From Candidatus Flemingiibacterium sp. (lineage in GTDB: Bacteria > Bacillota > Clostridia > Oscillospirales > CAG-272): a stretch of DNA of 64,000 nucleotides. A program made the position numbers and the translations under genes. Positions 5,920 through 32,218 of the stretch are shown piece after piece; the stretch's first letter is position 1, and the number at the start of each line of letters is the position of its first letter. The DNA is taken from assembly GCA_045636145.1 (NCBI GenBank), contig JAZTWV010000047.1, positions 11,101 to 75,100 of the forward strand, given 5' to 3'. Under the pieces are notes generated by a model. That model ran no database searches, was not told the origin of the DNA, and was given only the letters and a program-made list of their open reading frames with translations.

Positions 5920-6185
5920 TTATTATCTCCACTCAGAAATTTATATTTTCACGGTGACGTGGTTAAATAAAAGCCGGCATTCTTAGCACGACTACTTAAT
6001 TATAAATAATAATGAAAGATATGGTGTTAATAATGTGTAAATTTTGTCTTTGCTTCGCACAAATTCGTTTTAATCTCACTACAGGTACACGGCACAAATA
6101 TTGTTACTCATACAATTCCCCACGGTGCGCAAATTAGTTTCACGGCGATTTCGAATATGCCGTAACAATGTAAAACTAAAGAGGG

Positions 6186-17407: not shown

Positions 17408-17991
17408 TGTGCACCTCCGTTTGCCGCAAAGAAGGTGTGGTGCGCAGTAAGCGCGGTGTTTACCGCTTCAAGGATGGCATTTGATGAGATGGTAGAACCG
17501 GTGATTATGTCGATTCCGCCATTTAATGACTCAGCACCCTTGCCGATATACTGCGAGAGGTATACGGAATCGCCCACACGGCTTCCAAGACCGGGGGTCT
17601 CCGAATGAGACACCAATTTGACGCCTGCAAGCGTGCCGTCGACATTTACGCCTACCATTACGGTCATAGTGCCGCCGAATCCCAGAGGTTCAACCTGTGC
17701 CGCGTATCCTATGGCATTGCCGCTCTCTTTTACCACATAAAGCTCTGCTATTCCGCCAATGGGGGATTCGAAAAGCTCGCTTTCGATATCTCCCGAAAAA
17801 ATCTCGGCAATAGCCGCCGCCTTTTCGGCACGGGAATTTTCCGCGATCCTGTCAACTGTGAGCGCGTTTACTCCCGAAAGCAGAATTGCGGTAATTGTAC
17901 TTATGAGAAAAAGCTTAAACGTGATGCCGAGGATGGTTTTGACATCTCCGGTGTTTGCGGATGAAGATATTTCATTTTTTTGCTTTGCCAA
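17404..17991 (-). CDS. rnfG: Rnf complex subunit G (FMN-binding)
   Basis: FMN_bind motif GLGSR...TGSTISS. Start moved to the TTG at 17989-17991, 8 nt after GGAGG. The longer ORF overlaps rnfD by 74 nt. Confidence 0.8.
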   Translation of the reverse strand: MAKQKNEISSSANTGDVKTILGITFKLFLISTITAILLSGVNALTVDRIAENSRAEKAAAIAEIFSGDIESELFESPIGGIAELYVVKESGNAIGYAAQVEPLGFGGTMTVMVGVNVDGTLAGVKLVSHSETPGLGSRVGDSVYLSQYIGKGAESLNGGIDIITGSTISSNAILEAVNTALTAHHTFFAANGGAQ

Positions 17992-19069
17992 CCTTAGCAC
18001 CTCCGAATCTTGTGGGTTTGGTGTAGCGGTCGAGATACCATACAAGAAGATTCATAATGAGTATCGCGAAGGAAACACCCTCGTTATAGCCTCCGAAGTA
18101 TCGGATGAAAACGGTGAGCGCACCGCATCCTATACCGTATATGACACGTCCCTTATTGGTTATAGGTGAAGTTACATAGTCTGTTGCCATGAAAATTGCA
18201 CCGAGGAACAGTCCGCCCGAAAGGATCTCGTAAAGCGCAAAATCAAGGGTAGGCGTGCTTTGCGGGAAAATATAGGAGAGCAGAAATACAGTTCCTATGA
18301 ATGACACAGGAATGTGCCATGTAATGACACGGCGTACCAGGAGATATATAAATCCTGCGGTGAGCAGCAGAGCTGAGGTTTCACCAAGACATCCGCCCTC
18401 ATAGCCGAGTGCGGCATTGAAAAGCGACGTGCTTGTAGGAAGAATCCCATTTTTCAGTGCAACAAGGGGCGTTGCACTTGCTACTGCATCGGGGACAGAT
18501 ATAGCTATGGGTGAAAGCTGTGTATCGGGGGACACAAAGGTGTTAAGATGTGCCGGCCATGCAAACAGGAATACACGTGCCGCGAGAGCCGGATTGACAA
18601 AGTTTTTGCCAAGACCGCCGAAGAGCTGTTTTACCACGATTATTGCAAATACCGAGCCTACCGCAGGTATCCAGAGCGGTACGGATACAGGCATATTCAT
18701 ACCGATAAGAAGTCCTGTAACCACTGCGGAAAAGTCAAGCACCGTAACCGGCTTTTTCATAAGCTTTTCCCATATGAACTCGGACAGCATGGCGAATATT
18801 ACGGCAATCGCCGTTACTGTGAGTGCACGCAGACCGAATATGTATATGCCGAAAATAAGCGCCGGAAGAAGCGCGATGCACACATCAAGCATTATGGTGC
18901 GTGTTGTATCGGCGGCGCGGATGTGCGGTGAGGGTGTTACCGTGAGAAGCTCAGGGACAAACGCATTTTTGTCTGTATCTTCAGTTACGCTAATATTGTC
19001 AGCTACTGCTGAGGGAGCGGCAGTATTGGCGGTTATATCACTTTGAATATTGTTCTGTTCAGTCGTCAT
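17972..19069 (-). CDS. rnfD: Rnf complex subunit D
   Basis: 365 aa, RnfD/NqrB-like (TPSPHIRA...MLDV, ...FMATDYVTSP). Confidence 0.9.
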   Translation of the reverse strand: MTTEQNNIQSDITANTAAPSAVADNISVTEDTDKNAFVPELLTVTPSPHIRAADTTRTIMLDVCIALLPALIFGIYIFGLRALTVTAIAVIFAMLSEFIWEKLMKKPVTVLDFSAVVTGLLIGMNMPVSVPLWIPAVGSVFAIIVVKQLFGGLGKNFVNPALAARVFLFAWPAHLNTFVSPDTQLSPIAISVPDAVASATPLVALKNGILPTSTSLFNAALGYEGGCLGETSALLLTAGFIYLLVRRVITWHIPVSFIGTVFLLSYIFPQSTPTLDFALYEILSGGLFLGAIFMATDYVTSPITNKGRVIYGIGCGALTVFIRYFGGYNEGVSFAILIMNLLVWYLDRYTKPTRFGGAKVGKAKK

Positions 19070-19084
19070 TTTTCTGCCCCTCCT

Positions 19085-20434
19085 TTACTTGTTTTGGCTT
19101 TTTTCGCGTGCAATAAGCATTGCACGGCTGCGCTCAATTACCTTTATCTTGGTAGCGCGTATATATTGCGATATCGGAACGTGCGCAGGACAGCTGTAGG
19201 AACAGCTTCCGCACTCAACACAGCTTGTAATGTCGAACTGCTCCGCCATATCAAGCTTATCCTGCATAGAAAACATAGCAAGATAGTTCGGCATAAGCTT
19301 CATCGGGCATCCGCGCACACAGCGTCCGCATCTTATGCAGGCTATAGGCTGCTCATAAGGGTGCTCGATATCCTCGGACAACGCCAAAATAGCGGATGTG
19401 CCTTTGGTTACAGGAGAATCGATGTCCCACTGTGCAAAGCCCATCATAGGTCCGCCGTTTACGATCTTTTTCGGCTCGCGGGTAAGTCCGCCGCAGAAAG
19501 CGATAAGGTCGCGGTATGATGTTCCGATGGGAACAAGCACATTTTTGGGATTTTTGATGCAGTCACCGTCAACGGTTACAATACGCTCTACAAGCGGCAT
19601 ACCGGTTGCAAATGCGTTGTATATTGCGGCGCAGGTTTCGGCGTTGAAGATACAGCATCCCACATCTGCCGGGAGCTTGCCCATAGGAAGCTCCTTGCCT
19701 GTCAGTGCATAGATGATCTGACGCTCGTCGCCTTGCGGATATTTTGTTTTAAGTACATGAATTTTTACAAGCTCGCTGTCCGCTGTAAGCTCTTTTAGCT
19801 TTTTTATTGCGTCGGGCTTGTTGTCCTCAATTGCAATCTCGCCCTGTCTTATGCCGAAGGCTTTCAGAAGTATTTTGAGTCCGCCAATAACAGCACCGGG
19901 ATTTTCAAGGAGTAAACGGTGGTTTGCGGTTATGAACGGTTCGCATTCAGCGCAGTTTACAATGATATGCTCGACCTTGCCAAGAGCCGAATTTATTTTA
20001 GCATATGTAGGAAATGTGGCACCGCCCATACCTGAGATTCCGGCGTTCCTGACGACCTCAACGATCTCCTCTGTTGTGGTATCGGCAAGCGTTTTGCCCC
20101 ACGGTGCAATATCCGGGTGGACCTCCATGCGTCCGTCGTTTTCTATTACTACGTTTCGTATTCTTGCTCCTGTGGCTGTGCTGCGCTCGTCAATTCTTAT
20201 AACCTTACCCGAAATGCTTGAGTGCACGGGGCATCCGAGACCTGCTTCAACCTCGCCGATACGCTGTCCGCGAAGCACCGTGTCGCCAACACCCACACAA
20301 GGCTCTGCATGGATGCCTATATGCTGTGACATAGGTATTGATACCCAAGCCGGCGGTGTCATCGCTTCAACGGCACATCCGCGTGTATTTTTATGTTCTT
20401 CAACATGAATACCGCCATTAAAGGTTAATGCCAA
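19085..20434 (-). CDS. rnfC: Rnf complex subunit C
   Basis: Two CxxCxxCxxxCP clusters near the C-terminus and a GGGAxFPT-like motif GMGGATFPT. The probable start is a TTG at 20432-20434 after AGAGGTG. The ORF-track start at 20455 is also possible. Confidence 0.85.
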   Translation of the reverse strand: MALTFNGGIHVEEHKNTRGCAVEAMTPPAWVSIPMSQHIGIHAEPCVGVGDTVLRGQRIGEVEAGLGCPVHSSISGKVIRIDERSTATGARIRNVVIENDGRMEVHPDIAPWGKTLADTTTEEIVEVVRNAGISGMGGATFPTYAKINSALGKVEHIIVNCAECEPFITANHRLLLENPGAVIGGLKILLKAFGIRQGEIAIEDNKPDAIKKLKELTADSELVKIHVLKTKYPQGDERQIIYALTGKELPMGKLPADVGCCIFNAETCAAIYNAFATGMPLVERIVTVDGDCIKNPKNVLVPIGTSYRDLIAFCGGLTREPKKIVNGGPMMGFAQWDIDSPVTKGTSAILALSEDIEHPYEQPIACIRCGRCVRGCPMKLMPNYLAMFSMQDKLDMAEQFDITSCVECGSCSYSCPAHVPISQYIRATKIKVIERSRAMLIAREKSQNK

Positions 20435-20481
20435 ATGAGTCACCTCTTTGCTCAAAAATGATAAAATAATTGTATGATTAC

Positions 20482-20510: not shown

Positions 20511-20609
20511 GAGCAAAAATGACGAAATTAACAAAAATATTCGCTTTAAACTATGATTTTATGCAAATTGTCAACAAAATAACAAGCCTGATATTTGTTT
20601 GACAAACAT

Positions 20610-21344
20610 TTAAATGGGAATAGCGGCAAAAAGCGGCATGAGAATAACGGTAATAATTCCGCAAACTGCAATGGACAGACCGCTCATGGCTTCCTCTATT
20701 TCTCCAAATTCCCGCGCACGGGATGTGCCGATAGCGTGCGCCGCCGTACCGCAGGCGACTCCCACTGCAATCGGATGCTTGATGCGAAACAGCCGCACAA
20801 CGCCCGATGCGATTATATTTCCCACAATACCTGTCAGAACGATTACAGCAACAGTTACGGGGACGATTCCGCCAAACTCTTCGGAAACGCCCATGCCTAT
20901 GGCGGTGGTAATTGATTTCGGAAGGAGCGTTACATATTGCTCGCGGCTGAGACTGAAGATGCGGCTGATAGCAAATACACTTCCTATGCTGACTATCGCT
21001 CCCGATGCTATGCCGCCCAGTATTGCCAGCGGATATTTCTTTAAATATGAGAGCTTTTCGTAAAGCGGTATTGCAAGGCATACGGTTGTTGGGGTGAGCA
21101 TTACCTGAAACAGCGCCGCACCCGTGCCGTCATATTTGCCATCGGCGGTAAGTCTTCCGTATATGAATATATCGGGATCAATTCCGGCGGCAATGAGAAA
21201 AACGATTATTACCGTGCAGGATATGAGAAGTGGATTTAATATCGCAAGCCGGAACTTTTTTTGAAGCTTCAGGGCTATAAGGAAAACGGCGGCGGTTAAA
21301 AAAGCACCGAAAAACGAGGTGTTTGAAGCTATATTATTTAACAT
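20610..21344 (-). CDS. lrgB: LrgB family protein
   Basis: 244-aa polytopic membrane protein. LrgB-like pattern (PKSITTAIGMGVSEE...) and overlap with lrgA. Confidence 0.8.
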   Translation of the reverse strand: MLNNIASNTSFFGAFLTAAVFLIALKLQKKFRLAILNPLLISCTVIIVFLIAAGIDPDIFIYGRLTADGKYDGTGAALFQVMLTPTTVCLAIPLYEKLSYLKKYPLAILGGIASGAIVSIGSVFAISRIFSLSREQYVTLLPKSITTAIGMGVSEEFGGIVPVTVAVIVLTGIVGNIIASGVVRLFRIKHPIAVGVACGTAAHAIGTSRAREFGEIEEAMSGLSIAVCGIITVILMPLFAAIPI

Positions 21345-21753
21345 TATCCACTTGCTCCTTCTTACTTTGGAATTTTATAAGTGCGCCCGTCACGCATCCG
21401 CTTACTGCCATTACAACAAAGGTAGACAGCGTAGCCGTTATCAGAATGGGCACAAGAAATTCTGTGCAGGCGTCGAATTTTTTAATAAGTCCCACGCCGG
21501 GGGCTACGAACATTATGGGCATAAGCGAAAGGAGCAGATCGCCGGTTTTTTTGACCTGCGACAGCTTTATAACTCCCGCAAGCAGCAGAATAAACATAAT
21601 TGTAAGACCGTATATGCTTCCGGGAATTGGCAGAGGGATAAGGTATCCAAGCAGCTCGCCGAGAAAGGATACGGCGAGGATAAGCGTGATTTGCGACAGG
21701 TATTTCATGGCTTTTATATCTCCGTATGTGTGATTTATGGACAGTGTATACAT
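21334..21753 (-). CDS. lrgA: CidA/LrgA family holin-like protein
   Basis: 139 aa with 4 TM helices, directly upstream of and overlapping lrgB. Confidence 0.75.
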   Translation of the reverse strand: MYTLSINHTYGDIKAMKYLSQITLILAVSFLGELLGYLIPLPIPGSIYGLTIMFILLLAGVIKLSQVKKTGDLLLSLMPIMFVAPGVGLIKKFDACTEFLVPILITATLSTFVVMAVSGCVTGALIKFQSKKEQVDNVK

Positions 21754-21911
21754 TTTACCATTTTATTATGTATATGTCAATAATAAGCGGTGTTTCGGGA
21801 AGAAATCCTCATATGAGAAAGCCACGAAGCCATCAATTGGTTTAAAGTGCACCAAAATGGTCGTGTTTCTTTGTATACAACGCCAAAAAATAAATAATAT
21901 TGGCTGCGCTA

Positions 21912-21939
21912 TTGACAAGAACCACAATATATGGTATCA
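21912..21939 (+). promoter_or_regulatory. nrdDG promoter TTGACA-16-TATCAT
   Basis: TTGACA at 21912-21917, TATCAT at 21934-21939. Overlaps NrdR box 1. Confidence 0.55.
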
Positions 21940-21969
21940 TTTAAGAACAACGCATACTATATATAGTGG
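21922..21969 (+). promoter_or_regulatory. Tandem NrdR boxes
   Basis: Box 1 is CCACAATATATGGTAT (21922-21937) and box 2 is ATACTATATATAGTGG (21954-21969). Both resemble the acaCwAtATaTwGtgt NrdR consensus, and the centres are 32 bp apart (three helical turns), as is typical. Confidence 0.75.
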
Positions 21970-22042
21970 TGCGACTATGAAAAATACAAAATGTGCGATA
22001 TGGACGATTTTTATAAAATACGGTAATTCAGGAGATGAAAAA

Positions 22043-24217
22043 ATGAAGATAATTAAAAGAAACGGCTCAGAGGCAGAGTTTGACAAGCAAAAAATTGCGG
22101 TTGCCATAAGCAAGGCAAACAACGCGGTGGAGGAAAGCTTCCGCATAACACCGCTTCAGATTGATCGGATAGTGGAAAGTGTGGTTATATCCTGCGAAAC
22201 ACTTGGAAGATCTCCCGGAGTTGAAGAAGTACAGGATATGGTAGAGCATCAGCTCATGGCGCACGGTGCATTTGAGCTTGCGAAGATATATATAACCTAC
22301 CGCTATACCAGAAGCCTTGTCCGTCAGTCCAATACAACGGACGACAAGATACTTTCGCTCATTGAGTGCAACAATGAGGAAGCAAAGCAGGAAAATTCCA
22401 ACAAGAATCCTGTGATAAATTCCACACAGCGCGATTATATGGCAGGCGAGGTGTCCCGCGATATAACCAACCGTATTCTTCTTCCCGAGGATATTGTAAA
22501 GGCTCACAACGAGGGTATTATTCATTTCCACGATTCGGATTACTTTGCTCAGCATATGCATAACTGCGATCTCGTGAATCTTGAAGATATGCTGCAAAAC
22601 GGAACTGTTATTACAGGCACTTTGATCGAACGCCCTCACAGCTTTTCCACCGCTTGCAATATCGCAACGCAGATCATCGCGCAGGTAGCATCCAATCAGT
22701 ACGGCGGTCAGTCCATTTCGCTTACCCACCTTGCACCGTTTGTGGCGGTGAGCCGTGAGAAGATCACACGGGACGTTAAGGGCGAGATGGCGGATATCGG
22801 CACGGAGCTGTCGGAGGATAAGATAAGCGAGCTTGTTGAGCGCAGACTGCGCGAGGAGATACGCCGCGGTGTGCAGACCATACAGTATCAGGTGGTAACG
22901 CTTCTTACAACCAACGGACAGGCTCCCTTTGTTACGGTGTTCATGTATCTTAACGAGGCAAAGAGTGAGCAGGAAAAGCGTGACCTTGCGCTTATTATAG
23001 AGGAAGTGCTTGAACAACGCTTGCAGGGCGTTAAAAACGAGAAGGGCGTTTGGGTAACGCCTGCCTTCCCGAAGCTTGTCTATGTGCTTGAAGAGGATAA
23101 TATTAACGAGGGTGCTCCTTACTATTATCTCACAAGGCTTGCGGCGAAATGTACCGCAAAGCGCATGGTGCCGGACTATATTTCGGAAAAGAAGATGCTT
23201 GAGCTGAAAATCGACAAAAACGGTGAGGGTCACTGCTACACCTGCATGGGATGTCGCAGCTTCTTAACTCCGTATGTTGACGAAAACGGCGAGCCGAAAT
23301 ATTACGGCAGATTCAATCAGGGCGTTGTGACTCTCAATCTTGTAGATATCGCGCTGTCCTCCGAAAAAGACCGTGACGCGTTCTATAAGATATTCGATGA
23401 GCGTCTTGAGCTTTGTCACCGTGCGCTCATGTGCCGTCATAACCGCCTTAAGGGCACACTTTCCGATGCCGCGCCAATACTTTGGCAGTACGGTGCTCTG
23501 GCACGTCTTGAAAAGGGTGAAACCATAGATAAACTGCTTTACGGCGGATATTCAACCATATCCCTCGGTTATGCGGGACTTTATGAGTGCGTGCGCTATA
23601 TGACGGGCAAATCTCATACCGACCCCGAAGCAACTCCATTTGCTCTTGAGGTGATGGAATATCTCAACGCCGCCTGCCGCCGCTGGAAAGCCGAGCATAA
23701 TATCGACTTCTCGCTTTACGGCACTCCCCTTGAATCCACAACCTACAAATTTGCAAAATGTCTCCAGCGCCGTTTCGGAATCATCAAGGGCGTTACTGAC
23801 AAGTCATATGTAACAAACTCCTATCACGTTCATGTTACCGAGGAGATAAACGCTTTTGACAAGCTTATATTTGAAGCGAAGTTCCAGGCTCTTTCTCCCG
23901 GTGGTGCTATCAGCTATGTTGAAGTGCCCAATATGCAGAACAATCTGGAAGCGGTCATGCAGGTCATCCGCTGTATCTATGACAATATCATGTACGCGGA
24001 GCTTAACACCAAGAGCGACTACTGCCAGGTGTGCGGATTCGACGGCGAGATCGAAATAAGGGAGACTGACGGCAAGCTTGTGTGGACTTGTCCTCAGTGC
24101 GGCAATAACGATCAGGACAAAATGAATGTTGCGCGCCGCACCTGCGGTTATATCGGTACGCAGTATTGGAATCAGGGTCGTACACAGGAAATAAAGGAAA
24201 GGGTACTTCATCTGTAA
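22043..24217 (+). CDS. nrdD: Anaerobic ribonucleoside-triphosphate reductase
   Basis: Start at ATG 22043 (SD AGGAG), MKIIKRNGSEAEFDKQKI (ATP-cone). C-terminal Zn ribbon CQVCG...CPQCG and glycyl-radical motif RTCGYIG. Confidence 0.9.
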   Translation: MKIIKRNGSEAEFDKQKIAVAISKANNAVEESFRITPLQIDRIVESVVISCETLGRSPGVEEVQDMVEHQLMAHGAFELAKIYITYRYTRSLVRQSNTTDDKILSLIECNNEEAKQENSNKNPVINSTQRDYMAGEVSRDITNRILLPEDIVKAHNEGIIHFHDSDYFAQHMHNCDLVNLEDMLQNGTVITGTLIERPHSFSTACNIATQIIAQVASNQYGGQSISLTHLAPFVAVSREKITRDVKGEMADIGTELSEDKISELVERRLREEIRRGVQTIQYQVVTLLTTNGQAPFVTVFMYLNEAKSEQEKRDLALIIEEVLEQRLQGVKNEKGVWVTPAFPKLVYVLEEDNINEGAPYYYLTRLAAKCTAKRMVPDYISEKKMLELKIDKNGEGHCYTCMGCRSFLTPYVDENGEPKYYGRFNQGVVTLNLVDIALSSEKDRDAFYKIFDERLELCHRALMCRHNRLKGTLSDAAPILWQYGALARLEKGETIDKLLYGGYSTISLGYAGLYECVRYMTGKSHTDPEATPFALEVMEYLNAACRRWKAEHNIDFSLYGTPLESTTYKFAKCLQRRFGIIKGVTDKSYVTNSYHVHVTEEINAFDKLIFEAKFQALSPGGAISYVEVPNMQNNLEAVMQVIRCIYDNIMYAELNTKSDYCQVCGFDGEIEIRETDGKLVWTCPQCGNNDQDKMNVARRTCGYIGTQYWNQGRTQEIKERVLHL

Positions 24218-24220
24218 GCC

Positions 24221-24742
24221 ATGTATTACGGAAACATAAAAAACTGCGACGTGGCAAACGGTGTTGGCGTGCGTGTGACGCTGTTTGTGTCGGGGTGCAC
24301 CAACAGATGCGAGCATTGCTTTCAGCCGGAGACGTGGGATTTTTCCTTCGGTGAGGAATTTACCAGCACAGTGGAGGACAAAATTCTCGATATGCTGAAG
24401 CCGTCGTATATAAACGGACTCACGGTGCTTGGCGGCGAGCCTTTTGAGCCGCAAAACCAGCGTGCGCTTCTGCCGTTTCTCAGACGTGTGCGTGAGGCGT
24501 ATCCGGAGAAGGACATATGGGCATTTTCCGGCTTTACATACGAGGAACTTCGACATGACGGCTCACATCCGAGATGCGAGGCGACGGACGAAATACTCTC
24601 GCTTATTGATGTGTTGGTGGACGGACGGTATGTTCACGAAAAGCGCAATCTTATGCTGAAATTCCGCGGATCGTCCAATCAGCGTTTAATTGACATGAAT
24701 GCCACACGCTTGACGGGACAGATCGTTTTGTGGGACGAGTAA
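24221..24742 (+). CDS. nrdG: Anaerobic ribonucleotide reductase activating protein (radical SAM)
   Basis: 173 aa. Starts YGNIKNCDVANGVGVRVTLFVSGCTNRCEHCFQ. Confidence 0.9.
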   Translation: MYYGNIKNCDVANGVGVRVTLFVSGCTNRCEHCFQPETWDFSFGEEFTSTVEDKILDMLKPSYINGLTVLGGEPFEPQNQRALLPFLRRVREAYPEKDIWAFSGFTYEELRHDGSHPRCEATDEILSLIDVLVDGRYVHEKRNLMLKFRGSSNQRLIDMNATRLTGQIVLWDE

Positions 24743-24790: not shown

Positions 24791-24877
24791 AAATAAACGG
24801 CAGGAGCAAGCCCCTGCCCTACAGAATACCATAAATCTCGGTTGTAGGGCGGGGGCTTGCTCCCGCCGTTTTATTTT
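24791..24877. repeat. REP-like inverted doublet, copy A
   Basis: Arms are CGGCAGGAGCAAGCCCCTGCCCTACA (24798-24823) and TGTAGGGCGGGGGCTTGCTCCCGCCG (24843-24868). They are flanked by aaaataaa / ttttatttt and lie between convergent nrdG and carB-dapF. Confidence 0.8.
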
Positions 24878-24902: not shown

Positions 24903-25769
24903 TTAAAGTACAACCTTGCCTTCGTAGATCTTGGTGGCATCGCCTGAGAGGTATACCGCTTCATCGGTGTAGCGAATCTTGAGATCGCCGCCCTTTAATT
25001 TAACGGTGATTTCCTCATTCTTGGGGCAGTATCCGTTTTCAACCGCCGCCACTACAGCCGCACACGCACCGCTTCCACAGGCGAAGGTTTCGCCGGAGCC
25101 GCGCTCCCATACACGCATTTTAAGTGTGTGGGAATTGAGAACCTTGACAAATTCGGTGTTCACACGCTCGGGGAACAGCGGATCGTTTTCAAACTTCGGA
25201 CCAAGCTCCTGCAAATTAAGATTGTCAAGCACATCCTCAAACTCATCATTGAACACAACGCAGTGAGGATTGCCCATAGACACGCAGGTGATACGGTAAC
25301 GGTCGCCGGCAACCTGGGTAGGAACGCCGATCACGTTTCGAAGAGCCATCTTCACGGGGATAAGGGAGGGATTAAGCTCCGCCTTGCCCATGTTGACGGT
25401 AACGTTGCTGACCTCGCCGCTTACCTTTTCATATGTGGTCTCGCGGATTCCGCTCAGCGTTTCGATGGTAACGGTTTCGCCGTTTGCCATCTTATTGTCT
25501 ACCATATACTTTACAATGCAGCGTGCCGCATTGCCGCACATCTTGCCCTCTGTACCGTCAAGATTGAACATACGCATCTTAACGTCAGCCACGTCGGATG
25601 GGTACATCAGCACTACTCCGTCGCCGCCGATGCCGAAGTGACGGTCTGCAAGGCGGATGGAAAGTCCTTCGGGATTGTCGATCTTCTGGTTAAAGCAGTT
25701 GAAGTAGATATAGTCGTTTCCGCAGGCTTCCATCTTGGTAAATTCAAGAGTTGCCTTTGAGTCGCGCAT
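24903..25769 (-). other. dapF: DapF portion of the fusion ORF
   Basis: [23 protein letters not shown] resembles a DapF N-terminus. Both catalytic Cys motifs are present ([16 protein letters not shown] and [16 protein letters not shown]). No stop codon and no SD precede the internal ATG at 25767-25769. Confidence 0.8.
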
Positions 25770-28700
25770 ATCGTTGATATCAACAAGCTCGGTACAGCTC
25801 TGAGAATAACGGCTCTTAAGGCAGTCTGCAACCGCATTTGCCGTATCTATAGAGGTAAGGCAGGGGATTGCGCGCTCAACCGTCTTGCGGCGTATCTTAA
25901 CGCTGTCACGGGTAGGAATACGTCCCTTAGCGGATGTGGAGATAACATAGTCGATACGTCCGGATTCGATAAGCTTAAGGGTGTTGTTTTCGCCCTCGTG
26001 AATCTTATCTACGGTCTTGACCTTCATTCCGTAGTCTGCGATTACTTCTGCAGTGCCGCGAGTCGCGTAAAGCTCAAAGCCAAGGTCATAGAATCTCTTT
26101 GCGGTTTCGCCGATCTCGGACTTGTCGGAATCGCGGACGGTTATGAATATGCCGCCCTGCTTCTTCAGCTTGTAGCCTGCCGCAACGAGACCCTTGAACA
26201 GTGCTTCCTCGCGTGTGCTTGCAAGACCCAGAACCTCACCTGTGGACTTCATTTCCGGACCGAGGTGGTTGTCAACGTTCATCAGCTTTTCAAAGGAGAA
26301 TACAGGCACCTTTACAGCAACATAAGGAGATGTCTTGTAAAGTCCTGTGCCGTAGCCCATATCCTTAAGTTTTTCGCCAAGCATACAGCGTGTGGCAAGG
26401 TCTACCATAGGAACGCCTGTAACCTTGCTGATATAGGGGATCGTACGGGAAGAACGGGGGTTGACCTCGATAACATACAGTCTGTGGTCCTGATTGCTTA
26501 TAAGGTACTGTATGTTTACAAGACCCATTATCTTAAGAGATGTGGAAAGGTTCTTTGTTACTTCAATAATCTCCTCGCGGAGCTTATCGGTGATGTTCCA
26601 TGCCGGATATACCGCAATAGAGTCGCCGGAGTGGATACCGGTACGCTCAACGTGCTCCATGATACCGGGGATGAGGATATCATCGCCGTCACAGATAGCG
26701 TCAACCTCAAGCTCGATACCCATGAGGTATTTGTCTATAAGAACGGGGTTTTCGATGTTGTTTGCAAGGATTATCTTCATGTATTCCTTGATATCGTCCT
26801 CAGTAAAGGCGATGATCATATTCTGACCGCCGAGAACGTATGAGGGACGCATGAGAACGGGATATCCTATACGGGAAGCAACAGTAAGTGCTTCCTCTGT
26901 TGTCATTACGGTGAAGCCCTCGGGACGTGCTACGTGATTTGCTTCAAGCAGTGCATCAAAGCGTTCTCTGTCCTCTGCCGCGTCGATTGAATCGGCGGAG
27001 GTGCCGAGGATGTTTACGCCGTGCTCGGACATAAACTTTGTGAGCTTGATAGCGGTCTGACCGCCGAATGCTACTACAACGCCATAAGGCTTCTCGGTTT
27101 CGATGATGTTCATTACATCCTCGGGAGTAAGCGGCTCGAAGTAGAGTCTGTCGGCAGTGTCGAAGTCGGTGGAAACGGTTTCGGGGTTGTTGTTTACGAT
27201 AACAACATCGTAGCCTGCCTGCTTCAGCGACCATACGCAGTGCACGGATGCATAGTCAAACTCGATACCCTGACCGATTCGGATAGGACCTGAACCGAAA
27301 ACGATTACAGTCTTCTTTGAGGGATATTTCTTCTTCTCAATAAACTCTGCCGCCTCGTTTTCATCGTCGTAGGTGGAGTAGAAATAGGGGGTGTTTGCGG
27401 AGAATTCTGCCGCGCAGGTGTCAACCACCTTATAAACGGCACTCTTGTGCATACCATCGGGAAGTGCCTTGCCGCAGTATTCTTCGATAAGCTTGTCGGG
27501 GAAGCCCATTACCTTGGCTTCATGGTAAAGCTCCTTTGTCAGAGCTTCATCTTTGAGGCTGTGCTCCATTTTGATAAGATTGAGGAATTTATTTAAGAAC
27601 CATTCGTCGATCATGGTGATCTCGTGAATCTTATCCACGGTAGTTCCGCGGCGAAGTGCCTCGTAAACGATAAACAGACGCTCATCGTCCACGTTGTAAA
27701 GTCTTGACGCTACATCCTCATCGGACAGCTCGCGGTATTTCTTGTGCGAGAGGCAGTTCATGCCGATCTCAACACCGCGTACCGCTTTCATTATAGCCTG
27801 CTCAAAGGAAGTACCGATAGCCATGACCTCACCGGTTGCCTTCATCTGAGTGCCGAGGGTTCTCTTGGCGTAAACGAATTTATCAAAGGGCCACTTGGGG
27901 AATTTTACAACAATATAGTCGATAGTAGGCTCAAAGCAAGCATAGGTCGTGCCTGTTACCGCGTTGAGAATTTCGGGAAGTGTGTAGCCTATAGCGATCT
28001 TTGCCGCAACCTTTGCAATGGGATAACCTGTTGCCTTGGATGCAAGGGCGGAGGAACGGGATACGCGGGGGTTTACCTCGATAACAGCGTATTCCTTGCT
28101 TTCGGGATGAAGTGCGAACTGACAGTTACATCCGCCCTCGATTTCAAGCTCTTGGATAATGTCAAGAGCCGCGCCGCGGAGCATCTGATATTCGTCATCG
28201 GAGAGAGTTACCGCAGGGGCAACAACCACGGAGTCGCCGGTGTGAACGCCTACAGGGTCCACGTTTTCCATGGAGCAGATGGTGATAACGTTGCCTGCGC
28301 TGTCGCGCATAACCTCAAATTCGATCTCTTTCCAGCCGGATACGCACTTTTCAACAAGCACCTGGTGAATAGGAGAAGCGTTGAGACCGCCGTTTGTGAT
28401 CTCGATAAACTCATCCTCGTTGTATGCGATGCCGCCGCCTGTTCCGCCGAGGGTGAATGCGGGGCGGATAATAAGCGGATAGCCGTTTGCATGGGCAAAT
28501 TCAAGTGCCGCGTGAAGATCGTTTACAACGAGAGAGGGAATGCAGGGCTGACCTATTTTCATCATGGTGTCCTTGAACATCTGACGGTCCTCAGCCTTGT
28601 CGATGGTTTCGGGACGTGCACCGAGAAGCTTTACGCCCATTTTGTCAAGGAAGCCTTCCTTTGCAAGCTGCATTGACAGGGTAAGACCTGTCTGACCGCC

Positions 28701-28970
28701 AAGGGTGGACAGCAGGCTGTCGGGGCGTTCCTTTTCGATTATACGCTTGATCGTGGGCAGTGTAAGAGGCTCAATGTAAACCTCGTCTGCCATAGCGTTG
28801 TCTGTCATTATGGTCGCAGGGTTGGAGTTTACAAGAACGACCTCAAGACCGTCCTCTTTAAGCGCACGGCACGCCTGTGTGCCTGCGTAGTCAAATTCGG
28901 CTGCCTGACCGATAACAATAGGACCTGAGCCGATAACCATTACTTTTTTTATATCTTTTCTGAGCGGCAT
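24903..28970 (-). CDS. carB: Carbamoyl-phosphate synthase large subunit fused in frame to diaminopimelate epimerase (CarB-DapF, 1355 aa)
   Basis: Single uninterrupted ORF. The first 1067 aa are a complete CarB: two ATP-grasp halves ([19 protein letters not shown] and [18 protein letters not shown]) plus the MGS-like domain. The last 288 aa are a complete DapF. Confidence 0.85.
25770..28970 (-). other. carB: CarB portion of the fusion ORF
   Basis: 1067 codons, a normal CarB length. Ends ...[18 protein letters not shown]. Confidence 0.8.
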
Positions 28971-28989: not shown

Positions 28990-30063
28990 TTATTTCATTA
29001 AACCTATAAACTCGTCATAGATAAAGTCGGTGGCGTTGGGACCTCCTGCAGTGCCGGGACGGAACTGCACTCCGAGTGCGGGGATGTTCTTGTATTTTAC
29101 TCCCTCAACCGTACCGTCGTTGCCGTTTTTGTAGGTTACGGTGATGCTTTCGGGAAGCGTTGCCTCGTCAAGCGTATAACCCTGATTCTGAGATGTGATA
29201 AACACGCGCTTGTCGGAAAGTCTGATAGAGGGCATACCGCCGCGGTGCCCGTGGGGGAGCTTTACGGATTTTGCACCCTCTGATACTGCCAGCATAAGGT
29301 GTCCGAGGCAGATTCCGAGAATCGGAATGTTTTTCTTTGCGATCTTTGCAATCTCGGCGATGATATCAGGGTGCGACATAGGATCGGAAGGTCCGTTTGA
29401 AAGCACGATTCCGTCGGGATTCAGCGCCGCGATATCCTCGGCCTTAGTTCCGGCAGGAACGGTGATAACCTCGCATCCCCGTGCCATAAGTGCGGTCTTT
29501 ATGGAGTCTGAAACACCAAAATCCCACAAAACTACCTTTTTCGTGGCATTTTCGGGCTTTTCGGAGGTTACTTCTCCGCAGGTAACAGCCGAAACGGCAT
29601 CCGGTGCGGTATATGCTTTAATTTCCGCTGTCACAGCGCCGATATCGCTCGGAAGCTCATATGCTATCTTGGCTTTCATCGAGCCGTGATCGCGAAGGAT
29701 GCGTGTAAGCTTTCTCGTGTCGATGCCGGAGATGCCCACTATCTTATTTTCCCTCAAAAAAACGTCAAGAGCACCCTCACATCTGAAATTGGAAGGCTCT
29801 TGACATAATTCTCTGACAATATAAGCACAAACAGATGTGCCCTTACTTTCACATTCATGGGAAACAACACCATAATTACCGATAAGAGGGAACGTCTGGA
29901 CAACGAGCTGTCCCTTGTAGCCTGTATCGGTAAGTGTTGACATATAGCCGGTCATTGCGGTGGTAAAAACAGTTTCACCCATTACCTCGGCTTCATAGCC
30001 AAAGGATTTTCCGCAAAAAACCATACCGTTTTCAAGTATCAGGTATGTCGGTTTAGTCTGCAT
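28990..30063 (-). CDS. carA: Carbamoyl-phosphate synthase small (glutaminase) subunit
   Basis: 357 aa. GICLGHLML catalytic Cys motif and a class I glutamine amidotransferase C-terminal half. Confidence 0.9.
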
Positions 30064-30101: not shown

Positions 30102-30130
30102 ATTATACCATTTTATCGGCTTTATGTCAA
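30102..30130 (-). promoter_or_regulatory. carAB promoter, consensus TTGACA-17-TATAAT
   Basis: Minus strand: TTGACA at 30130-30125, TATAAT at 30107-30102, about 38 nt before the carA ATG (SD GGAGG). Confidence 0.65.
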
Positions 30131-30319
30131 GGGTTTAATATGTATAAATGTTGAGGCAAATGGGTGCCGATTGTTGTGAAAAGGAATAAAGTGGGAAAAA
30201 TCACCATAAATCAGATAGAAAATTTGGTCATATTTTCACTGTTCTCTGATTGGAACTTTTTTTGGGAAATCTCGTCTTATTTGGTGATAAGATTATTATA
30301 TTACGGGAGGCGTTTTTGT

Positions 30320-32218
30320 ATGAAAAAATATATTGCTGTTTTAACCCTGTTGGCGGCACTGCTTGGTGGATGCGTTGCAGGCGGTGGAAATGAAACAAAC
30401 GAAACCAATACGGACTACGGCGCAGAGATATCGGATACCGTGACAGAGGTGTCAGATACGGACGGCACTGCCGATGACGGTATCCTCTACTCCGAGGGGG
30501 ACTTAGCGTTTCTTGATATCGGCGGCGAGATTGCCGTGATGTGCCGCGGCGAGCTTGCGGGAATATACGACGGATATTTTCTGCTTACCGACAGCGCGGA
30601 CTGCATAAATCCATACGTACTTGAAAAAACAGAGGACGGGGTCAGAATACACTGGCTTGATGAAAACGGTAAGAGCGATGGATACGCTTCTGCTGAAACT
30701 GCGGTGCAGTACGGAGATTTTATTGTAACCGAAGAGCGTGTATATGATGCGCAGATGAAGCAGACTATTCATTTCCCGTCACATTCTTACAGATTCTCTG
30801 TAGGCAATGTTACAGCAGACGGCGAGGAAATAACGGTGGAGGGTACTGACGGAAACGGTGAGCCGGTTATATTCCGCTATTTTACCCGAGCAATGGATAT
30901 GGATGCGGTAAGTGAGCTTCCCATACCGGAGCTAACGGTGACGGACGGGAAAATAAGGATATTTGATACGAGACCTGTTTGGGGAAATGACGGAAACGCC
31001 ATAGGTGTGCTTGAAATTGACGCGCCTGCTGACCCCGAACAGATCGGTTCCTTCGGTGAATATGTTACCTATAATACACATACACATATGTTTTTCATAA
31101 GTGACGACACGGTTGTACACATCAGCAAGGGCGACGGACTTCAGCATAATGTATATGATGACTTTTTCACTGTAGGCTATGAATTTTATATGCCGTATAC
31201 GGTATACGATAAAAATTTTGAGCGTGCTTTTGACGAAGAATTTCGAATATTCTCCCAGCTTAGCGACGGGAATTACATAGCCGTTCCAATACCGGCTGCA
31301 CTTCCCTCAGATGGGATAGAGTATACAGTCTACAACTCCGAAAAAGAGATAGTATATACAGGAAAAAACGATGACAGCGGTGGTATCATGGATGTCGGCG
31401 CGGATTATGTTCTGCGAGTAAAAGACGGTACACTTTTGCTGTATACTCCTTACGGCGAGCTTATGTGTGAGTTTGGGTATATCTCAGATACAATGGGATT
31501 CCACGATATGCTGTCCGGAGTGGGAGCTAAGGACGGTGTCCCATGCTACTATTTTATATTTGAGGACAGTGCCGACACGGATAAGGACGGCAATACCCGA
31601 CACATCGAATACTACTACGTCCCCGAAACAAACGAAGTCGGATTTGTAGACGGCGGATATTCTTCCTTTGCCTACGCAAAACCGGTGCTGTATCTCTATC
31701 CCACAGAGAAAACGGATGTTACGGTTACATTCGAGCATCCGGAGCGACTGACCACCGTATATCCTGCGTACAGCGACGGCTGGAGCGTTTCTGCCGCTCC
31801 GGACGGCACGCTTACGGACTCTCGCGGCAGAAGCTACTACGCCCTTTATTGGGAGGAAACAAGCGGTGTGTCTTTCTACAGCTTTGATGAGGGATTCTGC
31901 GTGGCAGGCGAAGATTCAGCGGTGTTCCTTGAAGAAAAGCTTGCCTACATGGGATTTTCTGAAAGAGAAGCAAACGAATTTATCATATATTGGCTTCCCA
32001 TAATGGAAGCAAGCGAGTACAATCTTGTAAGCTTTGAGCTGACAGGTGAGCGTGAAGCGTCAAATGCACTTCACATCACACCTGCACCCGATTCTATGCT
32101 TCGCATGGCTATGCACATAAAGACGATGGACGCTCCGGTTACAATTGCCGAGCAGAAATTGCCGTCCTTTGAGCGAAGCGGATTTTGCGCCGTTGAATGG
32201 GGCGGATGCGTGCATTGA
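30320..32218 (+). CDS. Large lipoprotein of unknown function
   Basis: Start at ATG 30320 after GGGAGG. MKKYIAVLTLLAALLGGC is a lipobox signal. 632 aa, acidic, with no motif I can place. The C-terminal approx. 190 aa (KPVLYLYPTEK...YYALYWEE...FIIYWLP) look like a conserved domain of unknown function. Confidence 0.6.
   Translation: MKKYIAVLTLLAALLGGCVAGGGNETNETNTDYGAEISDTVTEVSDTDGTADDGILYSEGDLAFLDIGGEIAVMCRGELAGIYDGYFLLTDSADCINPYVLEKTEDGVRIHWLDENGKSDGYASAETAVQYGDFIVTEERVYDAQMKQTIHFPSHSYRFSVGNVTADGEEITVEGTDGNGEPVIFRYFTRAMDMDAVSELPIPELTVTDGKIRIFDTRPVWGNDGNAIGVLEIDAPADPEQIGSFGEYVTYNTHTHMFFISDDTVVHISKGDGLQHNVYDDFFTVGYEFYMPYTVYDKNFERAFDEEFRIFSQLSDGNYIAVPIPAALPSDGIEYTVYNSEKEIVYTGKNDDSGGIMDVGADYVLRVKDGTLLLYTPYGELMCEFGYISDTMGFHDMLSGVGAKDGVPCYYFIFEDSADTDKDGNTRHIEYYYVPETNEVGFVDGGYSSFAYAKPVLYLYPTEKTDVTVTFEHPERLTTVYPAYSDGWSVSAAPDGTLTDSRGRSYYALYWEETSGVSFYSFDEGFCVAGEDSAVFLEEKLAYMGFSEREANEFIIYWLPIMEASEYNLVSFELTGEREASNALHITPAPDSMLRMAMHIKTMDAPVTIAEQKLPSFERSGFCAVEWGGCVH

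Follow-up and report, generated by a model that had tools for sequence, protein, structure and literature searches.

Enzymes carried on the synthetase of carbamoyl-phosphate synthase (CPS) in one polypeptide are known from the eukaryotic proteins CAD and yeast Ura2, which join consecutive enzymes of one pathway (dihydroorotase, DHOase; aspartate transcarbamoylase, ATCase), the glutaminase included. The diaminopimelate (DAP) epimerase DapF is also joined to another enzyme in one open reading frame (ORF) in P0237, a 776-residue protein of the representative library, where an N-terminal DapF precedes the middle and C-terminal domains of a Mur ligase. Here we describe a fusion of the large CPS subunit, CarB, with DapF, encoded in a 64,000-nucleotide stretch of Candidatus Flemingiibacterium sp., a member of the Clostridia from the gut (contig JAZTWV010000047.1, positions 11,101 to 75,100; below, the window, numbered from its first letter). 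Like CAD and Ura2, it appends an enzyme to the CPS synthetase. Unlike them, it has no ATCase or DHOase domain in Pfam searches, the glutaminase subunit is encoded by a separate gene, carA, and the partner comes from the lysine/peptidoglycan pathway. The pairing in P0237 has pathway logic, as meso-DAP leads to the peptidoglycan precursor, whereas CarB has no such direct link to DapF.

The fusion is recorded in databases, is uncharacterised, and combines ordinary parts in an unusual pairing. The ortholog of Ruminococcus albus 8 (WP_002848374.1; UniRef100_E9SAI5) bears the automatic UniProt name 'Multifunctional fusion protein', and NCBI names the fusion protein either 'carbamoyl-phosphate synthase large subunit' or 'diaminopimelate epimerase'. 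A literature search of incomplete coverage found no paper on a CarB–DapF fusion and nothing relevant on R. albus DapF. We consider it probable that the conserved fusion is made as a single polypeptide of ~150 kDa with both modules likely active, and that it has one origin followed by vertical inheritance.

Domain content of the fused protein

The ORF and its two parts are located in the window as follows.

24903..28970, minus strand: carB::dapF fused ORF, with the Shine–Dalgarno (SD) sequence GGAGG before the ATG at 28970
25755..28970, minus strand: CarB part, residues 1–1072, delimited by NF003671, TIGR01369 and the E. coli CarB alignment
24906..25754, minus strand: DapF part, residues 1073–1355, two DAP_epimerase half-domains, delimited by Pfam, TIGR00652 and structural relatives
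25536..25538, minus strand: catalytic Cys1145, first active-site thiol, in KMCGNAARC (residues 1143–1151)
25077..25079, minus strand: catalytic Cys1298, second active-site thiol, in FACGSGACA

The ORF has an ATG start, 1355 codons and a stop, and its predicted product has a mass of 149.7 kDa. The original prediction had read it as a full CarB followed by a full DapF with both cysteine motifs; these elements are present as quoted, and both parts score above curated cut-offs.

The CarB part matches the CarB equivalog model NF003671 with 1497.1 bits (cut-off 599) over residues 1–1058, corresponding to model positions 1–1053 of 1058, and TIGR01369 with 1448.3 bits (cut-off 1027). Pfam identifies two copies each of CPSase_L_D1 and CPSase_L_D2, one CPSase_L_D3 (residues 423–497) and one MGS domain (residues 954–1039). 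The part is thus composed of two preATP-grasp/ATP-grasp units, an oligomerisation domain, an MGS-like allosteric domain and a C-terminal tail. Compared with standard CarB/PyrAB (E. coli structures 1jdb, 1bxr and 1a9x), it has the full domain set, collinear over residues 1–1058, and its allosteric domain and tail align up to the last residue of E. coli CarB. The partner gene carA likewise lies immediately upstream. By all sequence features tested, the CarB part is a complete member of the family. However, standard CarB stops after the tail, whereas the fusion adds 283 residues that amount to a complete second enzyme.

The DapF-like nature of these residues, which the original prediction had left to profile searches, is borne out by them. 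The DapF equivalog model TIGR00652 scores 272.4 bits within the fusion (residues 1076–1353; cut-off 114.65) and 277.5 bits on the DapF part alone, over model positions 2–268 of 270, and PF01678 scores 189.5 bits in two stretches. Both catalytic cysteines are invariant in all 81 aligned sequences and align with the cysteine motifs of solved DapFs; the key residues of GNDY, FN.DG.E..MCGN, MGNPH and N.EF are invariant in the same 81. The DapF part of the window contains every substrate-binding motif (GNDF/Y, FN.DG.E, MGNPH, N.EF and WERG), which we take, from published DapF structures, to be those that bind DAP.

The closest structural relatives are authentic DapFs, namely that of Bacillus anthracis (2otn, E 6e-70), 9mro and 3ejx. 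Standalone DapFs (2otn; Haemophilus influenzae 1bwz/2gke; E. coli 4ijz; Arabidopsis 3ejx) have the two half-domains, both cysteines and the binding motifs in common with the DapF of the window. A standalone DapF has its own start and a free N-terminus, whereas the DapF of the window has neither and is covalently joined to a partner of ~118 kDa. Two related specificities, which have the fold family and the two-cysteine chemistry in common with it, were rejected: that of DcsC, the O-ureido-serine racemase (7vdy, E 2.3e-34 against 6e-70 for 2otn), and that of the bifunctional DapF/glutamate racemases (NF038284, 98–103 bits against a cut-off of 350). By these features the part fits DapF proper. 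Most likely, as far as sequence can tell, both modules are active: CarB would work with CarA to make carbamoyl phosphate, and the C-terminal module would interconvert LL- and meso-diaminopimelate for the lysine and peptidoglycan pathways.

The CarB–DapF junction

Two features define the region where the modules meet.

25734..25808, minus strand: junction, residues 1055–1079, with no stop and no spacer, highly conserved across fused homologs
25767..25769, minus strand: ATG of Met1068, which belongs to the tail of CarB and does not act as a start codon, as judged from the E. coli tail alignment, leucine in relatives and the lack of an SD

When the tail of E. coli CarB (...VQEMHAQIK; KVISVQEMHAQIK and then its end) is aligned with the fusion, its methionine corresponds to Met1068 and its last lysine to K1072. 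From the other side, L1075 pairs with residue 1 of the DapF chains solved for H. influenzae and E. coli, and the start methionine of standalone relatives, four residues ahead of the FTKM motif, corresponds to A1073. The alignment of orthologs that had been suggested for locating the ancestral DapF start thus places it at ~A1073. CarB is judged by these alignments to end at ~K1072 and DapF to begin at ~A1073, with effectively zero linker. The prediction of a CarB followed by a DapF without a stop holds, but its division into 1067 and 288 residues has to be moved ~5 residues downstream.

In that division, Met1068 was the first residue of DapF. This role is rejected, since Met1068 aligns with the tail methionine of E. 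coli CarB and since the position is occupied by leucine (CTT, CTC, CTG, TTA or TTG) in about 15 lineages. The latter also excludes Met1068 as a required start codon. Its ATG (25769-25767) is preceded by accgagcttgttgatatcaacgat, in which, as had been noted, there is no SD: the anti-SD duplex energy is +0.6 kcal/mol, compared with −10.8 at the carB start and −10.6 at the carA start; the median over 20 gene starts is −7.6, and coding background gives −2.3. The only other in-frame ATG, GTG or TTG between residues 1030 and 1095 is at residue 1080 (+0.4 kcal/mol). No promoter-like site is found near the junction on the coding strand of the window. With no internal start, SD or promoter-like site there, a single polypeptide is expected.

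In an AlphaFold2 (AF2) model of residues 941–1355, a construct without the rest of CarB, both modules fold with a predicted local distance difference test (pLDDT) score of ~90. Scores below 50 occur at residues 1055–1063 only, and the predicted template modelling score is 0.67. The CarB tail may pack against the remainder of CarB, outside the construct.

Distribution and conservation

A scan of one genome per species of GTDB, with the DapF part alone as the query, returned 80 loci. In 75 of them, carB precedes dapF in one shared frame, 0–3 nt apart and without a stop. Two more (L011 and L047) are cut by a contig end yet have the CarB tail in frame, and in a further one (L080) a second dapF comes after the fusion. 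In total, 78 of the 80 species-representative loci carry the in-frame fusion; the survey of related genomes for CarB proteins of ~1350 residues, which had been proposed earlier, finds the complete ORF of ~1350 codons in 66. The two loci without the fusion are L037 and L040. Carriers include the cultured R. albus strains 8, AR67 and KH2T6, many Ca. Flemingiibacterium metagenome-assembled genomes (MAGs), Ca. Aphodoplasma, Neglectibacter, and MAGs that their submitters assigned to Christensenella or Christensenellaceae. The closest relatives are Ca. Flemingiibacterium MAGs; L017, on contig CAJGCT010000001.1, is 99% identical.

The exact protein of the window is public, in a 90%-identity cluster with 34 members (those listed are mostly 1355–1356 residues long) found on many contigs of NCBI and ENA assemblies. 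This cluster and the same junction in 78 of 80 loci uphold the earlier view of a true in-frame fusion, as opposed to an adjacent independent dapF. A query composed of the MGS domain and DapF returned at least 120 protein clusters, at 58–91% identity, in which a single protein has both PF02142 and PF01678; their names refer to Ruminococcus bicirculans, Ruminococcaceae, Oscillospiraceae and Clostridia MAGs. In clustering at 50%, ~15 representatives have the fused architecture, down to 41% identity, and below 41% all are standalone DapFs of ~280 residues. The fusion is therefore confined to a clade but deep.

The best 120 matches to the MGS-plus-DapF query are all 357–730 residues long, many of them named 'partial', while full-length proteins of ~1350 residues exist. 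Many public copies appear to be truncated by contig ends or by gene calling, and NCBI then gives the fragments the name 'diaminopimelate epimerase, partial'.

Both halves are under strong purifying selection. Over 154 unsaturated pairs, the ratio of nonsynonymous to synonymous substitution rates (dN/dS) has a median of 0.037 in the CarB part and of 0.073 in the DapF part, and the pairwise distances of the two halves are correlated (Pearson 0.83). In a neighbour-joining tree of DapF domains, computed without support values, the 79 fused domains group in a single clade, whose sister group consists of the standalone copies from L037, L040 and L080. A query with the free DapF of the sister clade found no standalone DapF named from Ruminococcus at 72% identity or above; names are sparse in that search, and distant copies can be missed by it.

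Operon and gene neighbourhood

The fusion gene is the second gene of a putative two-gene operon.

28990..30063, minus strand: carA, CPS small (glutaminase) subunit, 357 residues, first gene of the operon
30102..30130, minus strand: promoter-like site 5' of carA, TTGACA/17 nt/TATAAT with TG before the −10 hexamer; a match to the consensus only, 12 of 12
24799..24818, minus strand: terminator-like hairpin of 8 bp (6 GC) with a T-run, ~85 nt past the fused ORF; a match to the consensus only

The carA product matches CPSase_sm_chain (3.7e-47) and GATase (5.9e-35), and its start, like that of carB, is preceded by GGAGG. In each of the 64 related loci with a carA match, carA is directly upstream of the fusion and on its strand. 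The promoter-like and terminator-like sites enclose carA and carB::dapF only; judged by its consensus match, the former probably acts as a promoter. The terminator-like hairpin faces that of nrdG at 24848-24867 (plus strand). A scan of the entire window with Rfam at the gathering threshold gave no match to an attenuator, a riboswitch or any other RNA element.

In relatives, the fusion is part of a larger cluster, carA-carB::dapF-(dapF)-pyrG-dapL. pyrG follows directly on the same strand in 17 fused loci, and a gene for a DapL-type LL-DAP aminotransferase follows on the same strand in about 27. The two loci without the fusion have the order dapF-pyrG-dapL. In Clostridium thermocellum, carB (Cthe_0949) and the dapF-aminotransferase pair (Cthe_3100/3101) are separate (PMC3478167). 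In E. coli K-12 (L081, NC_000913.3, 28374-34038), dapB, a gene of the DAP pathway, lies immediately upstream of carA-carB, a further instance of DAP-pathway genes next to carAB, though as separate genes.

These neighbours qualify the earlier statement that CarB and DapF have no obvious shared intermediate, since the fusion of relatives clusters with pyrG and dapL. Three links can be proposed: CarA and PyrG release glutamate, which DapL would consume; aspartate feeds both pathways; and UTP and meso-DAP would converge in the synthesis of UDP-MurNAc-peptide.

Two genes converge on the fusion gene in the window: nrdD (21737-24217, plus strand), for an anaerobic ribonucleotide reductase containing ATP-cone and glycyl-radical domains, and nrdG (24221-24742, plus strand), for its activase. 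The listed nrdD ORF has ~100 surplus N-terminal residues ahead of the ATP-cone, and translation probably begins at the internal MKIIKRNG.... RnfC- and RnfD-type genes of an Rnf cluster (ion-translocating ferredoxin:NAD+ oxidoreductase) occupy 17972-20455 (minus strand), downstream of the nrd genes. An ORF of 176 residues at 20551-21081 (minus strand) has no Pfam match. Divergent from carA is an ORF of 684 residues (30164-32218, plus strand), also without a Pfam match. It has an internal methionine followed by MKKYIAVLTLLAALLGGC, resembling a lipoprotein signal peptide with a lipobox, and translation probably begins further downstream than the listed GTG.

Proposed origin and expression of the fusion

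On the interpretation that we favour, one promoter would read the two-gene operon carA then carB::dapF. Its products would be CarA and a single polypeptide of ~150 kDa, in which ~K1072 of CarB runs straight into DapF. In this lineage, DapF would be made only as part of CarB, as the sequence of the junction implies.

The fusion probably originated once, in an ancestor within the Oscillospiraceae-type Clostridia. The simplest history is that carB lost its stop codon once, within an ancestral cluster of the order carA-carB-dapF-(dapF)-pyrG-dapL, in which carB and dapF would have been tightly packed neighbours with the ribosome-binding site (RBS) of dapF inside the carB tail. A conserved lysine or arginine codon just before the DapF start may, as a guess, be the mutated stop (TAA/TAG to AAA/AAG). 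Thereafter the fusion would have been inherited vertically under purifying selection. The loss of a stop codon, one of the origins suggested before, is thus likely, but a simple recent accident is not, since the fusion is ancient and fixed.

The immediate effect would be that CPS and DapF are obligatorily co-expressed, at a ratio of 1:1, and co-localised. Solved DapFs are dimers, and CPS oligomerises partly via its allosteric domains. Because of these two properties, we speculate that the DapF modules probably pair and thereby bridge two CPS protomers.

Several points weigh against this interpretation. The polypeptide and both of its enzyme activities are predictions. The window contains no second carB or dapF, but this absence covers 64 kb only, and neither pyrG nor dapL is present there. 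Free dapF genes in genomes of the Neglectibacter type show that the fusion is not everywhere the sole DapF of the cell; the suggested survey for a second dapF thus had a divided outcome, with a copy beside the fusion in those genomes and none within the window. The neighbour-joining tree carries no support values. The AF2 model, from which the rest of CarB is absent, supports no fixed geometry between the domains.

Alternative explanations

The fusion could be a device for functional coupling, in which the DapF module alters the quaternary structure or the regulation of CPS. For example, DapF–DapF pairing could bridge two CPS protomers, or CPS could sense occupancy by DAP. We regard this as possible, if doubtful. 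If true, it would tie the supply of pyrimidine and arginine precursors to that of cell-wall and lysine precursors, and it would explain a difference in constraint between two DapF copies in genomes of the Neglectibacter type.

In Neglectibacter caecimuris (L082/L083) and its relatives (L084/L085 and L080), a carB::dapF of 1359 residues is accompanied by a free dapF 0–2 genes downstream, after which pyrG and the DapL-type aminotransferase gene follow (L082, 1133-7858; L084, 2879-7894; L080, 13-2681). The two DapF copies within one genome are 61–62% identical. The fused copy retains both cysteines, but AC[S/R]NDY replaces GCGNDY, there is an insertion of seven residues, and NVGF replaces NTEF in two of three. 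The dN/dS ratio is 0.045–0.094 for the fused copy against 0.131–0.182 for the free one. The fused copy is more constrained despite the adjoining free dapF, indicating that the fused module serves a need that free DapF does not meet. This tighter constraint is the main argument for a structural or regulatory role related to CPS.

A related possibility is co-option: wholly or in part, the DapF module would now serve CPS as a structural or regulatory appendage, such as a handle for dimerisation on the allosteric domain or a module that senses DAP, and bulk epimerisation would not be why it is kept. The lower dN/dS of the fused copy beside a free dapF, the lineage-specific changes in canonical motifs of the fused domain in two-copy genomes and the spacer-free, strongly conserved junction would all be expected from it. 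However, the window and all single-copy loci keep every canonical catalytic and binding motif of DapF, the score against the DapF equivalog is more than twice the cut-off, and dapL, whose product makes the substrate of DapF, follows the fusion in about 27 fused loci. In addition, AF2 gives no confident packing between the domains, and the junction is conserved in part because it forms the tail of CarB. The fused module of the window and that of R. albus are fully canonical, with no free copy at the conserved position, which fits a working DapF in those genomes. We consider co-option of this kind unlikely.

Still less probable is that the single ORF gives rise to two proteins, with free DapF produced by initiation inside the ORF or set free by proteolysis at the junction. 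In 22 of 79 fused genes, the DapF-start position itself is an ATG or GTG, and GAGG or AGGAG precedes it by 8–14 nt in 17 of these 22 (for example ...TTA AGG AGC TCA AAA ATG AAA... in L036), so that dual products are plausible there. A typical spacing is AGGAG, 7 nt and ATG in some of these lineages. The 22 carriers are L024, L029-L031, L033, L036, L039, L042, L044, L046, L049, L051, L053, L055, L056, L060, L061, L063, L068, L071, L077 and L079, and the site is at about position 6000 in loci with full flanks. We read the start codon and SD-like motif as a relic of the ancestral dapF RBS inside the carB tail, and relatives that retain both may make some free DapF besides the fused form. As to cleavage, residues 1055–1063, modelled with low confidence, could be exposed to proteases. 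In contrast, the window and all Flemingiibacterium-type and R. albus-type sequences have neither a start codon nor an SD at the DapF-start position, on which ground internal initiation is rejected for the window. The non-start leucine codons at the position of Met1068 and the absence of a promoter-like site near the junction argue in the same direction, and keeping the frame open across about 80 species would be needless if separate products mattered.

That the fusion reflects an error of sequencing or assembly, or a recent stop loss specific to one strain, is hardly credible and is rejected. No observation favours this view. Of 80 species-level genomes, produced by many studies with many assemblers and including isolates, 78 have an identical or homologous junction, and the near-identical 34-member cluster, the at least 120 clusters with MGS and DAP_epimerase domains and the purifying selection on both halves all speak against it.

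Biological significance

Both enzymes of the conserved CarB–DapF fusion are textbook enzymes; the novelty lies in the way they are joined and in how stable this architecture has been in evolution, although it spans two pathways without a direct link. The inconsistent naming of the protein can make automated pathway reconstructions overlook one of its two functions. Its carriers are abundant fibre degraders of the gut and rumen (R. albus, R. bicirculans-type bacteria and Flemingiibacterium), and a bifunctional enzyme of ~150 kDa may therefore supply their meso-DAP. If the DapF module affects the assembly or regulation of CPS, the fusion would represent a new kind of cross-pathway coupling. The two-copy genomes of the Neglectibacter type provide a natural experiment on such coupling and are the most interesting lead.

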